This document shows, piece by piece, positions 1 to 3,607 of a DNA stretch of 13,620 nucleotides (the stretch's first letter is position 1; each line of letters begins with the position of its first letter). Origin of the DNA: a virus (lineage: Duplodnaviria; Heunggongvirae; Uroviricota; Caudoviricetes); IMG/VR virus record IMGVR_UViG_2565956608_000003; one strand, written 5' to 3'. Position numbers and translations under genes: made by a program. Under the pieces are notes generated by a model. It was not told the DNA's origin. It made no database searches and saw only the letters and a list, made by a program, of their open reading frames with translations.

Positions 1-1
1 G

Positions 2-403
2 GGGCTGAATCATTACCGTGATAACGCCATAACCTACAAAGAGCAGCGCGATAAAAAAGTCAGTGAGCTGGAGCAGGCAAATGCAACCATTACTGATATG
101 CAGCAGCGCCAGCGTGATGTTGCTGCACTCGATGAAAAATACTCAAGGGAGTTAGCTGATGCGAAAGCTGAAAATGATGCTCTGCGTGATGATATTGCCG
201 CTGGTCGTCGTCGGTTGCGCATCAGAGCAGTCTGTCCAGCCGTGCGTGAAGCCACCGGCACCACCGGCGTGGATGATGCAGCCCGCCCCGGACTTACTGA
301 CGCCGCTCAACGGGATTATTTCACCCTCAGAGAGCGAATCGCAACCAGCGACAGAATGATTCGGGGATTGCAGGAATATATCCGCACCCAGTGCATTAAG
401 TAG
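2..403 (+). CDS. Rz: Rz i-spanin, 5'-truncated by the window edge
   Basis: Frame open from base 2 ([18 protein letters not shown]...), continuous with track ORF 98..403; the translation closely matches my recollection of lambda Rz ([38 protein letters not shown]); stop TAG 401-403. Confidence 0.9.
159..359 (+). CDS. Rz1: Rz1 o-spanin lipoprotein, embedded in the +1 frame of Rz
   Basis: 66-aa ORF entirely inside Rz in another frame; [20 protein letters not shown] has a signal peptide and lipobox Cys, followed by a Pro-rich tail ([15 protein letters not shown]); closely matches recalled lambda Rz1; SD-like AAGGGAG about 7 nt upstream of ATG 159. Confidence 0.85.
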
Positions 404-426
404 TCTTTTTATTATCCGGAGGATGT

Positions 427-666
427 ATGAAGAAATTACTGGTAACCGTAAAGCCCTTTAACGGAACAATTCCGTTTCGGATTTTACAGCGTGGTCGTGT
501 TCTGGCTGAAGGTACATTCAGTGGTAAATGCACGGAATGTTATTCACGAATATATGAAGTGGATGCCTCGGATGAAGATATAACCGTTGAGTGTAATGCC
601 GGGATTGTATCGGCCACATTGCTTCATGGGCGAATTGGGTTGTCGCTGGAGGATGCAGGCAAATGA
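427..666 (+). CDS. Hypothetical small protein (79 aa), unknown function
   Basis: Track ORF; GGAGG(A) 418-423 about 4 nt upstream of ATG 427; lies between the lysis cassette and the HNH gene; I recognise no motif. Confidence 0.6.
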   Translation: MKKLLVTVKPFNGTIPFRILQRGRVLAEGTFSGKCTECYSRIYEVDASDEDITVECNAGIVSATLLHGRIGLSLEDAGK

Positions 667-851
667 ATTACCAACTGGCAAAACTTTATCGTGGTAAACA
701 TTTCGTAGGGTATGGGATTGCAGTTAATGGTGAGTTACTGGAAGGGCAGCTTTCCGCCAGGACAGAGTCACGTGGAGGCGAGCCACCAACAGTCACTGTG
801 ACTTTCAGACTGACAGCAGAACATATTGAGAATCAGCCGTCATTCAACTGA
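663..851 (+). CDS. Hypothetical small protein (62 aa), unknown function
   Basis: Track ORF; ATG 663 overlaps the upstream stop as ATGA (664-666), suggesting translational coupling; GGAGG at 648-652; I recognise no motif. Confidence 0.55.
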   Translation: MNYQLAKLYRGKHFVGYGIAVNGELLEGQLSARTESRGGEPPTVTVTFRLTAEHIENQPSFN

Positions 852-869
852 ACAGGGTGTGAGGTATTT

Positions 870-1220
870 ATGCCATCACGAATCCCACGCGCCTGCCGTA
901 AGCGTGGATGTGCAGGTACAACCACAGACAGTTCTGGTTACTGCGATAAACATCGTGGCGAAGGATGGGTACAGCATCAACGCGGACTGAGCCGCCACCA
1001 GCGTGGCTATGGCTCGAAATGGGATGCCATACGTGCGCGCATACTGAAGCGTGATAATCATCTGTGTCAGAACTGCCTGCGCAATGGGAGAGCCGTTGAA
1101 GCCAGAACTGTGGACCACATCATTCCGAAAGCTCATGGTGGCACGGATGCAGACAGTAACCTGCAGAGTCTGTGCTGGCCCTGTCATAAAGCAAAAACAG
1201 CGCGTGAACGCATCAACTGA
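870..1220 (+). CDS. HNH endonuclease (packaging-associated, HK97 gp74-like)
   Basis: HNH signature DHIIPKAHGG...SNLQSLCWPCH with Cys pairs CQNC and CWPC (zinc-finger type), plus an N-terminal Cys cluster; sits directly upstream of the small terminase gene, as in HK97-like phages; GAGG 861-864 before ATG 870. Confidence 0.9.
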   Translation: MPSRIPRACRKRGCAGTTTDSSGYCDKHRGEGWVQHQRGLSRHQRGYGSKWDAIRARILKRDNHLCQNCLRNGRAVEARTVDHIIPKAHGGTDADSNLQSLCWPCHKAKTARERIN

Positions 1221-1367
1221 TAACAGTTCCTATCTGCAGGGGAGGGGCGGGTCAAATCTCTGCAACCCTGGCTGCTCAGTACCGCCGCCTGACCTTTCCT
1301 CGCATCGCCGCAGGTTCGAAAACTTTTTTTTGGAATGTGATTAAATGATTGATAGGTAAAACCGATT
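1221..1367 (+). other. Candidate cos / terminase-recognition region (HNH-to-TerS intergenic)
   Basis: 147-bp non-coding gap in an otherwise tightly packed operon; G-rich tract GGGGAGGGGCGGG (1239-1251), CGCCGC twice (1283-1288, 1306-1311), T8 run (1324-1331). Position matches where cos lies in HK97-like genomes. Exact cut site not determinable by eye. Confidence 0.35.
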
Positions 1368-1850
1368 ATGTCTGGACCCCCGAAAACCCCGCCACGCCTG
1401 CATTTGATACGAGGCAACCCCTCAAAGCGGCCAGTTAAAGACCTCAAAAAAACCGCTAAAAAGGATGAAAAAGGTCTCCCTAAAATTCCGCAACATTTAG
1501 GGGCGCAGGGGAAGTACTGGTTCAGGCGAATGGCGGAAGAGCTGAATGCGGAAGGGATCATTTCTCAGCTTGATGCGCGTGCGCTTGAGCTACTGGTGGA
1601 AGCCTATACCGAATACCGGCATCACTGCGAAACACTCGATGTTGAGGGGTACACCTACCGCTCGGAAACGCAGAACGGTGATGTGCTGATTAAGGCACAC
1701 CCAGCTGCTGCGATGAAAGCGGATGCCTGGAAGCGGATCCGGGCGATGCTTGCAGAATTTGGTATGTCACCGGCAAGCCGGGCAAAAGTAAATACCGCCG
1801 GACCGGATAATGTTGATCCGCTGGCAGAGCTTTTAAAAGCGAGAGACTGA
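1368..1850 (+). CDS. Terminase small subunit (P27-like family)
   Basis: 160-aa ORF immediately upstream of and overlapping (TGATG) the large terminase gene; basic N-terminus (PKTPPRLHLIRGNPSKRP) and overall look recall the P27-family small terminase. Confidence 0.8.
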   Translation: MSGPPKTPPRLHLIRGNPSKRPVKDLKKTAKKDEKGLPKIPQHLGAQGKYWFRRMAEELNAEGIISQLDARALELLVEAYTEYRHHCETLDVEGYTYRSETQNGDVLIKAHPAAAMKADAWKRIRAMLAEFGMSPASRAKVNTAGPDNVDPLAELLKARD

Positions 1851-3607
1851 TGGCAAAAGTGGCTGACGGGATCCGCTACGCCGAACGTGTTGTTGCAGGA
1901 GAAATTGTTGCTGGCGAATTTGTCCGCCTGGCCTGCCAGCGTTTTCTTGATGATCTGAAGTACGGCGAAAAGCGGGGGATTTATTTCAGTGAACCCCGTG
2001 CGCAGCACATCCTGAATTTCTACAAATTTGTGCCTCATGTAAAAGGGGCACTGGCAGGCCAGCCCATTGAGTTGATGGACTGGCATGTATTTATCCTCAT
2101 TAATATTTTTGGTTTTGTCATTCCGCTGGTCAATGAAGAAACCGGGGAAGTTGTCATGCGCAGCGATGGCAGCGGACGTCCGGTGATGGTGCGCCGGTTC
2201 CGGACGGCGTACAACGAAGTCGCCCGTAAAAACGCAAAATCAACCCTGTCATCGGGTATCGGCCTGTATATGACGGGGGCAGATAGTGAAGGCGGAGCTG
2301 AGGTGTATTCAGCCGCAACCACGCGTGACCAGGCCAGAATCGTGTTTGAAGACGCCAAAAATATGGTCAGAAAAGCCCGGTCGACACTCGGGCGGTTGTT
2401 TGATTTCAACAAGCTGGCGATTTACCAGGAGCAGAGCGCATCAAAATTTGAACCGCTTTCCTCGGATGCAAACAACCTGGACGGTCTGAACATCCACTGC
2501 GCCATTATTGATGAGCTGCATGCACATAAAACCCGCGACGTGTGGGACGTTCTGGAGACGGCAACCGGTGCCCGTCTGCAGTCTCTGTTATTTGGCATCA
2601 CCACGGCTGGCTTTAACAAGGAAGGGATTTGTTACGAGCAGCGTGATTACGCCATCAAGGTATTGCGAGGCTATAACAGCGACGTGGAGGGCGCGGTAAA
2701 AGACGACTCCTACTTTGCGATCATTTACACGCTCGATGAGGGAGATGATCCGTTTGATGAAACGGTCTGGCAGAAAGCGAATCCTGGCCTGGGCATCTGT
2801 AAACGCTGGGATGATCTGCGTCGTCTGGCGAAAAAAGCGAAGGAGCAGGTCTCTGCGCGGGTGAATTTTTTTACCAAACACATGAATGTGTGGGTCACTG
2901 CCGAATCTGCCTGGATGGATATGATTAAGTGGGAGAAGTGCGAATACATTGCTCCACAACATGAGCTGAAAACATATCCCATGTGGGTCGGCGTCGACCT
3001 TGCTCATAAGATTGATATCTGTGCGGCGGCAAAACTCTGGCGAACCGATAACGGACATGTTCATGCTGATTTTAAATTCTGGCTTCCGGAAGGACGGCTG
3101 GAACGATGCTCGCGGCAGCAGGCAGAACTTTACCGGAAGTGGGCGGAGATGGATAAGCTCATCCTGACGGATGGTGATGTTATCGATCATGCTCAGATAA
3201 AAAGTGACTTACTGGAATGGATTGGCGGTGAAAACCTCAGGGAACTGGGATTTGACCCGTGGAGCGCAATGCAGTTCAGCCTGGCACTGGCTGAAGAAGG
3301 GATACCGCTGGTGGAGGTTCCGCAGACGGTCCGCAATCTGTCAGAGGCCATGAAGGAAACGGAATCACTGGTTTATGCCGGGCGTTTCCATCACAGCAAT
3401 CATCCGGTCATGAACTGGATGATGTCTAACGTTACTGTAAAACCGGACAAAAACGACAACATCTTCCCGAATAAATCCACGCCGGAAGCCAAAATCGACG
3501 GCCCTGTTGCGCTTTTTACAGCCATGAGCCGCTTTCTGGTAAATGGCGGGGGCGTGAATGACTTTCTGTCCACGCTTGATCCTGATGAGGACTTGTTAAT
3601 TCTGTGA
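1850..3607 (+). CDS. Terminase large subunit
   Basis: 585-aa ORF; Walker B-like HCAIIDELH; possible deviant Walker A around ARKNAKST; C-terminal nuclease-like region (WVGVDLAHKIDICAAA); position between small terminase and portal. Confidence 0.9.
   Translation: MAKVADGIRYAERVVAGEIVAGEFVRLACQRFLDDLKYGEKRGIYFSEPRAQHILNFYKFVPHVKGALAGQPIELMDWHVFILINIFGFVIPLVNEETGEVVMRSDGSGRPVMVRRFRTAYNEVARKNAKSTLSSGIGLYMTGADSEGGAEVYSAATTRDQARIVFEDAKNMVRKARSTLGRLFDFNKLAIYQEQSASKFEPLSSDANNLDGLNIHCAIIDELHAHKTRDVWDVLETATGARLQSLLFGITTAGFNKEGICYEQRDYAIKVLRGYNSDVEGAVKDDSYFAIIYTLDEGDDPFDETVWQKANPGLGICKRWDDLRRLAKKAKEQVSARVNFFTKHMNVWVTAESAWMDMIKWEKCEYIAPQHELKTYPMWVGVDLAHKIDICAAAKLWRTDNGHVHADFKFWLPEGRLERCSRQQAELYRKWAEMDKLILTDGDVIDHAQIKSDLLEWIGGENLRELGFDPWSAMQFSLALAEEGIPLVEVPQTVRNLSEAMKETESLVYAGRFHHSNHPVMNWMMSNVTVKPDKNDNIFPNKSTPEAKIDGPVALFTAMSRFLVNGGGVNDFLSTLDPDEDLLIL

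Follow-up and report, generated by a model that had tools for sequence, protein, structure and literature searches.

Two separately distributed small genes between the lysis and packaging modules of an Escherichia coli prophage

Two small open reading frames (ORFs) that overlap by four nucleotides between the lysis and packaging modules of a phage genome raise the question of whether they form one functional unit or two genes that merely lie side by side. The ORFs considered here, ORF1 of 79 amino acids (aa) and ORF2 of 62 aa, occupy positions 427–851 of a 13,620-nucleotide (nt) stretch of DNA from a virus of the Caudoviricetes (IMG/VR record IMGVR_UViG_2565956608_000003); this whole stretch is referred to below as the window. 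The window matches a prophage of Escherichia coli SCU-116 (NZ_CP051719.1) at 100% identity; there, ORF1 (WP_023150316.1) and ORF2 (WP_023150317.1) are both labeled "hypothetical protein." The initial annotation, made from the letters of the DNA, had described them as a translationally coupled two-gene cassette. Our results show that ORF1 is associated with the ends of lysis cassettes and ORF2 with the HNH endonuclease gene of the packaging module. Both are uncharacterized members of catalogued families, phrog_2571 in the case of ORF1 (at the domain level) and phrog_10235 in the case of ORF2, which makes this an ordinary finding. Taken as a whole, the data point to what is likely a set of two unrelated, independently inherited, dispensable accessory genes that are expressed late and act as binding modules.

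Distribution of the two genes and the joint between them

Only a small minority of the loci holding either gene hold both, which is at odds with a two-gene cassette. In IMG/VR, the two genes occurred together at 6 of the 80 ORF1 loci kept for this count and at 8 of the 74 ORF2 loci. In a census of 5426 complete E. coli genomes, some part of window positions 380–900 was matched in 595 genomes, and the whole stretch in 30 only. Each side of the pair also recurs without the other. The sequence from Rz, at the end of the lysis cassette, through the first 56–57 codons of ORF1 was found at ∼84% nucleotide identity and without ORF2 in phages converting for the Shiga toxins (Stx) Stx1a, Stx2a, and Stx2c and in many enterohemorrhagic E. 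coli (EHEC) genomes. Likewise, ORF2 from codon 6 onward, together with the HNH–terminase module, recurs at 96–97% identity without ORF1. Comparison of window positions 1–1500 with representative relatives by blastn placed breakpoints at ∼409, 597–625, 678, and 853/869. At locus L097, which has no ORF1, the sequence diverges from the window upstream of ∼678, and ORF2 is served by another ribosome-binding site.

The junction itself differs among close relatives. In the nearest of them the spacer GGATGCAGGCAAATGA is 1 or 4 nt shorter, so that ORF1 extends to 88–89 aa, and in other near relatives a change of CGA to TGA stops ORF1 at 68 aa after ..LLHG, 10 codons early. Given this unstable junction, with its indels and earlier stop, and an ORF1 tail produced by read-through, the ATGA overlap of the window would be a lineage-specific by-product of the join and not a conserved coupling device. 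The claim of translational coupling is further weakened by the presence of a GGAGG of its own ahead of ORF2. The features of the region are as follows.

1–403, plus strand: Rz (i-spanin) gene, 3′ part (PF03245, E 7e-40; phrog_13, E 3e-48; labeled "lysis protein" in SCU-116)
159–359, plus strand: Rz1 (o-spanin) ORF, nested in Rz in a different frame, from the ORF list and translation; lipoprotein-type N terminus ..LVVVGC, with the lipobox read from the sequence
418–422, plus strand: Shine–Dalgarno (SD) sequence GGAGG of ORF1, 4 nt 5′ of the ATG, read from the sequence
427–666, plus strand: ORF1, 79 aa, phrog_2571 domain homolog as judged by profile match
648–652, plus strand: SD sequence GGAGG of ORF2, 10 nt 5′ of the ORF2 ATG and within the ORF1 tail, read from the sequence
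663–851, plus strand: ORF2, 62 aa, frameshifted phrog_10235 allele
837–838, plus strand: site of a 1-nt deletion in ORF2, CC in the window against CCC or CCT in 7 of 7 aligned relatives (nucleotide alignment)
870–1220, plus strand: HNH endonuclease gene of an HK97/P27-type packaging module (PF01844, E 2e-16)
1368–1850: small terminase TerS, P27-type
1850–3607: large terminase TerL

The window begins within the Rz gene, and downstream of TerL comes a head and tail module of the HK97 type. The coordinates and the Pfam matches of the flanking genes bear out the sizes of the two ORFs, the ATGA at 663–666, the location between Rz/Rz1 and HNH, and the strong SD sequence of ORF1, all of which the initial annotation had recorded. 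Its impression by eye that the segment is AT-richer than its neighbors was also correct: the G+C content (GC) is 45% for ORF1 and 46.6% for ORF2, compared with 53–54% for Rz, HNH, and TerS (a difference of 6–8 points) and 52% for the window, and GC at third codon positions is 0.39–0.40 for ORF1 and ORF2 versus 0.48–0.58 for their neighbors. The minus-strand ORFs within the interval are all 46 aa or shorter. The gap between ORF2 and HNH is 18 nt in the window and would be 7 nt if the frame were unshifted.

Consensus scans of window positions 1–1500 detected no sigma-70-like promoter on the plus strand and no terminator-like site on either strand, and such scans likewise gave no convincing promoter or terminator signal around ORF1 at loci L001 and L025. 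An Rfam scan of positions 1–1500 returned nothing relevant. With no promoter or terminator found between the ORFs and the lysis genes, both proteins are probably made late, from a read-through transcript.

Two unrelated protein families

Both ORFs are genuine protein-coding genes. Pairwise ratios of nonsynonymous to synonymous substitution rates (dN/dS, Nei–Gojobori method) had a median of 0.29 over all pairs for ORF1 (codons 1–54), with values of 0.18–0.61 for the window against individual relatives, and a median of 0.19 for ORF2 (codons 1–58), in which synonymous sites are saturated relative to homologs of 47–58% identity. A collection of 5.8 billion proteins contained 63 homologous clusters for ORF1, exclusively from E. 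coli, Shigella, or Salmonella, and 14 clusters for ORF2; in IMG/VR, 198 stretches encode ORF1. ORF2 is conserved across genera at 47–55% identity, and an exhaustive profile search with it against 1.84 billion representatives gave 50 matches at E ≤1e-3, with 28 at E ≤1e-10. A scan of genome contigs added two Citrobacter loci and no others. The exact window alleles were found on 134 contigs for ORF1 and on 104 contigs for ORF2.

ORF1 matched phrog_2571 with E 5.4e-25, but only over profile positions 100–172 of 291. In agreement with this, it shares 43% identity (E 8e-14) with residues 101–169 of a 286-aa protein (P0078). A full-length member of the family, PhiR46_1 XSB42772.1, spans profile positions 1–291. 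On these matches, ORF1 is a homolog of one phrog_2571 domain and not a full member. Next to ORF1 there is no trace of either terminal domain of the large protein, and the parent family itself has neither a Pfam domain nor a solved relative. The AlphaFold 2 (AF2) model of ORF1 had a predicted local distance difference test score (pLDDT) of 84 and a predicted template modeling score of 0.70, with pLDDT ∼92 for residues 1–68 and <50 for residues 69–79. The first 68 residues are predicted to form a six-stranded β-sandwich, and the model is consistent with residues 69–79 being a disordered, nonconserved read-through tail. The C terminus is indeed variable among relatives, which stop at 68 or 69, 74, 79, 88, or 89 aa; the usual form is 74 aa long and ends in ..SAxLQPVC or ..SATLLPVS. 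In relatives with a matching Rz type, ORF1 starts 23 nt past the Rz stop. At locus L025, ORF1 and ∼18 nt of its own upstream sequence stand behind an unrelated lysis cassette with another endolysin and spanin.

Two side observations concern ORF1. The 79-aa form falls into a 90%-identity cluster (P0184–P0197) headed by unrelated partial "helix-turn-helix/DNA-binding" proteins; we disregarded this label as an apparent clustering artifact of the protein collection. In one prophage lineage (L091/L004, E. coli DG342-2, 2491–2592 and downstream), the HNH gene that follows ORF1–ORF2 is cut to ∼34 codons; after the truncated HNH come phrog_2571 in full length and a region of the lambda-Nu1 type, forming another mosaic joint. 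ORF1 and a full-length phrog_2571 relative thus coexist in some prophages.

ORF2 matched phrog_10235 over nearly the whole profile (E 1.9e-28, positions 4–65 of 67). The family core comprises ∼65 residues (kiQLAkLYRG..F.GYG.AVdG.LL..Q.st.i.T....P.i...F.l..e..EN...I.l), and family alignments show that ORF2 keeps the conserved KLYRG..F.GYGIAV.G.LL and F.L...ENQ motifs. A feature overlooked in the initial annotation is that the window carries a 3′-frameshifted allele. The E. coli consensus form has 66 aa and ends in ..ENQPVIKLNRV, whereas the window allele ends in ..ENQPSFN* after 62 aa, one C being missing from the CCC/CCT run after position 838; the intact frame would end at the TGA at 860–862, 7 nt ahead of the HNH ATG. 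Through this 1-nt deletion, ORF2 of the window has lost the last conserved strand of the family (..VIKLNRV). The occurrence of the exact 62-aa allele on 104 contigs indicates that it is in circulation rather than the result of faulty assembly. The AF2 model of the intact 66-aa form (pLDDT 83) consists of four β-strands and a short helix.

The phrog_10235 domain occurs as 66–71-aa proteins, in C-terminally extended forms of 104–112 aa, and as the C-terminal domain of 284–293-aa proteins. Examples of the last form are P0130 and P0135 (284–293 aa) and the protein encoded at L162 4001–4882. The middle part of P0130/P0135 contains a short motif common to lambda J and the F2-pyocin central tail fiber (PF09327, partial; PDB entry 25vf, E 1.6e-4), and many relatives of these proteins have the N-terminal 80–200 residues in common, followed by other C termini. 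One viral contig carries a tandem pair of ORF2-family genes (L130 2481–2666 and 3001–3312).

As single proteins, neither ORF1 nor ORF2 matched Pfam, NCBIfam, PADLOC, or PDB sequences, in line with the earlier statement that no motif could be recognized. The toxin, antitoxin, and defense domains of PADLOC, Pfam, and NCBIfam gave no match even at E up to 1–10, and profile searches against the PDB returned nothing significant. Among 30 family members, SET7_N (MORN-like) appeared in sub-threshold Pfam matches only, the best with E 6e-4 and below the gathering score, and it was not used. We found no transmembrane segments (maximum 19-residue hydropathy of 1.04 for ORF1 and 0.68 for ORF2), no signal peptide, hydrophobic leader, or lipobox, and no catalytic motif in either protein. 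An hhalign comparison of the two families gave a probability of 0.2%, which led us to reject paralogy and to treat them as unrelated. A literature search found no paper naming the RefSeq accessions or the PHROG identifiers, and the publication on Yersinia phage P840 does not discuss ORF70–72. The profile searches and the AF2 modeling delivered family matches and confident models, but not a solved homolog. With no homology to characterized proteins, and with both ORFs conserved as coding sequence, the two genes are best described by the fallback wording of the initial annotation, "conserved phage proteins of unknown function."

A variable slot and the neighbors of ORF2

The HNH gene of the window is common in E. 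coli, with 1011 carriers among the 5426 genomes and 865 records reaching ≥95% nucleotide identity. Of the 1011, only 81 have ORF2 ahead of this gene, and ∼92% lack ORF2; in the genomes without ORF2, homology to the window begins at 853 or 869–870. In JP538, a gene for the identical HNH protein (WP_001140099.1) lies 42 nt past Rz. The spacer in this prophage contains a 30-nt piece that is 97% identical to ORF2 codons 8–17 (L214 2476–2517 versus window 685–714) and, as judged from the alignment, looks like a deletion scar of a lost ORF2.

Other prophages fill the same interval differently. In MS15047 (L213 1683–1976), the slot is occupied by iss, a homolog of bor that encodes a serum-survival lipoprotein, on the opposite strand, and in AR_0089 (L003 2256–2741), it holds a GNAT acetyltransferase gene, also on the opposite strand, plus ORF2; the HNH/TerS sequence of both prophages is 96–98% identical to that of the window. 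At locus L025, where TerL and TerS are 99 and 97% identical to those of the window, the slot contains ORF1 and two other small ORFs. These differing contents among near-identical prophages indicate that the Rz–HNH interval is a hypervariable cargo slot and that both ORFs are optional. The suggestion that this is a position for nonessential cargo was thus well founded. A recurrent occupant of the slot is a DUF4406/nucleoside 2-deoxyribosyltransferase-like gene, seen directly after Rz in PhiR46_1 (L007 2609–2920) and in P840 (L006 2074–2400).

An ORF2-family gene lies directly upstream of HNH at 53 of the 74 IMG/VR loci, the two genes overlapping by up to 12 nt or lying up to 10 nt apart, and this adjacency spans HNH types that are 37–44% identical and TerL types that are ∼28% identical to those of the window. 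The same arrangement is found in Klebsiella phage KpF5, and in Yersinia phage P840 an ORF2-like domain lies directly downstream of HNH. At 16–18 of the 74 loci, the ORF2-like gene is directly followed by a glycosyltransferase (GT) pair (485 aa, phrog_1579; ∼197 aa, phrog_854), after which HNH usually comes; three of these loci have the trio between the major capsid and head–tail adaptor genes. Examples of ORF2-like genes with the GT pair are L112 3001–5717, L106 1900–6034, and L162 4001–7760. This pattern suggests that the three genes move as a unit, which may serve to glycosylate the virion. The recurrent packing of ORF2 against HNH or GT genes is the sole hint of a functional link.

Further features of the prophage lie outside the slot. 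The HNH–TerS intergenic region (1221–1367), which in HK97-like phages is the site of cos, has a G+C-rich start (ggggaggggcggg) and a T-run ahead of TerS. Upstream of the window, the interval from the Q antiterminator gene to the holin gene of the SCU-116 prophage (L002 2221–2807) contains three tRNA genes (Ile, Arg, and Arg) as well as a truncated DNA methyltransferase. This layout resembles that of the late regions of Stx phages, minus stx.

Alternative explanations and related systems

Four other explanations deserve consideration. That chance alone keeps one or both frames open in noncoding spacer DNA might be suspected from the short length of the ORFs and from the many spurious ORFs of 60–140 aa in other frames of the same region. 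We consider this rejected, and its probability negligible, in light of the purifying selection on both, the conservation of ORF2 across genera with 50 cluster representatives in the 1.8-billion-protein library, and the confident AF2 models of both proteins. An idea more in keeping with the initial annotation is that ORF1 and ORF2 are one co-functional, translationally coupled pair, namely a toxin/antitoxin-like, anti-defense, or exclusion module. The ATGA overlap in the window would fit such a pair, as would the occurrence of the exact pair in one E. coli prophage lineage (the 30 complete genomes, with the alleles on 134 and 104 contigs) and the location in a cargo slot where relatives carry lysogenic-conversion genes. 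Against this, each gene usually occurs without the other, so that they are not co-inherited as a unit; indels or an earlier stop abolish the overlap in the nearest relatives; an SD sequence of its own precedes ORF2; the two families are unrelated; and no PADLOC or Pfam toxin or antitoxin match was obtained. Moreover, as no promoter of their own was found, expression in the lysogen is not expected. The pair is therefore largely refuted by its distribution, and we regard it as very improbable.

The remaining alternatives concern one gene each. ORF1 could be a decaying, functionless fragment of a phrog_2571-type gene, retained merely by its location in the late operon. The match confined to about a quarter of the parent profile and to the middle of the 286-aa protein, the variable C terminus, the low GC, and the absence of any flanking trace of the other domains are all compatible with this. 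A fragment free of function, on the other hand, would not readily account for the dN/dS values over codons 1–54, for a strong SD sequence and an ATG exactly at the domain boundary, for an intact 74-aa form in hundreds of genomes in addition to the 198 IMG/VR stretches, for a predicted autonomous fold with pLDDT ∼92, or for the retention of the gene behind two different lysis cassettes, and we consider it unlikely. For ORF2, the tight 5′ adjacency to HNH across divergent HNH and TerL types, extended by KpF5 and by the P840 domain directly after HNH, could be explained if phrog_10235 proteins were accessory subunits or regulators of the HNH–terminase cos-cleavage machinery, co-expressed with HNH and active in packaging. 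Yet ORF2 is not co-conserved with the HNH–TerS–TerL module as a component would be: just 81 of the 1011 E. coli genomes with this HNH gene have it upstream, JP538 encodes the identical HNH protein but has lost ORF2, and L025 has near-identical terminases with other genes before HNH. In addition, 16–18 loci have the GT pair downstream instead, three of them between capsid and adaptor genes, and the frameshifted window allele is nonetheless widespread. A packaging role of this kind is accordingly a doubtful reading, if marginally less so than decay of ORF1. Two more specific roles, which we entertain together and at slightly longer odds than either of these, are that ORF1 could act as a domain mimic interfering with the full-length phrog_2571 proteins of co-resident or competing prophages, and that the ORF2 domain could be a small adaptor in cos-type Enterobacterales phages, for example targeting a downstream-encoded enzyme (HNH, or a GT pair acting on the virion or DNA) to its substrate.

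We thus favor two separate accessory genes as the explanation. In a lambdoid, HK97-like prophage of E. coli, a recombination joint would have brought ORF1 and ORF2 side by side in the slot that separates the lysis cassette from the HNH–terminase module. ORF1 would be a gene for a domain-sized soluble β-sandwich that follows the last lysis gene and has its own ribosome-binding site, and ORF2 would encode a ∼65-aa β-rich domain that is normally packed against HNH or the pre-HNH GT pair. As neither protein has an enzymatic signature, both are most likely small binding modules that modulate a process and are unneeded for lysis or packaging.

Together, these data resolve what appeared to be a mystery cassette into two catalogued phage families and explain the apparent operon by mosaic recombination. 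Relatives of ORF1 lie directly behind the lysis genes in many Stx-converting EHEC phages and would therefore be co-transcribed with the late (stx–lysis) transcript. The habit of ORF2 of abutting HNH or GT genes is a lead to a factor that assists HNH-dependent cos packaging or modification of the virion, for which natural ORF2 knock-outs exist for comparison in JP538 and in the frameshifted allele of the window.

The two genes can be compared with several known systems. Morons, in the sense of Hendrix and Juhala, are accessory genes with their own promoter and terminator, deviant composition, and patchy presence. ORF1 and ORF2 share the presence or absence among near-identical phages and the deviant base composition, whereas, within the limits of consensus scans, they differ in having no promoter and terminator of their own. 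In lambda-like phages, the gene classically carried as cargo in the Rz–cos interval is bor. Bor/Iss and the two ORFs have in common the slot between Rz and packaging genes, the patchy presence, and a higher AT content than the flanks; no sequence similarity to Bor/Iss and no Pfam or NCBIfam match was found. Bor/Iss are lipoproteins encoded on the opposite strand with their own expression in the lysogen, unlike ORF1 and ORF2, which lie on the late-operon strand and have no promoter, signal peptide, or lipobox.

HNH proteins of the HK97 gp74 type reportedly serve as packaging factors. The same kind of gene adjoins ORF2 here, next to cos and terminase, a context described for HK97 gp74-type HNH proteins (PMC3592412). 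ORF2 itself does not belong to the HNH proteins, it is missing beside most copies of this HNH gene, and our data do not support a packaging role for it.

The closest comparisons are with the two families themselves. The phrog_2571 proteins of E. coli and Shigella prophages (276–286 aa, e.g. XSB42772.1) occupy the same slot between lysis genes and terminase as ORF1. They have an N-terminal part of ∼100 aa and a C-terminal domain of ∼115 aa, both of which ORF1 lacks, and ORF1 is a separate gene of 74–79 aa with its own SD sequence. Other phrog_10235 members from Enterobacterales phages carry C-terminal extensions (71–112 aa) or form a domain of 284–293-aa proteins, whereas ORF2 of the window is frameshifted instead. 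With these members, such as WMM91436.1 of Klebsiella phage KpF5, ORF2 nevertheless shares a near-full profile match and the same place directly 5′ of HNH.
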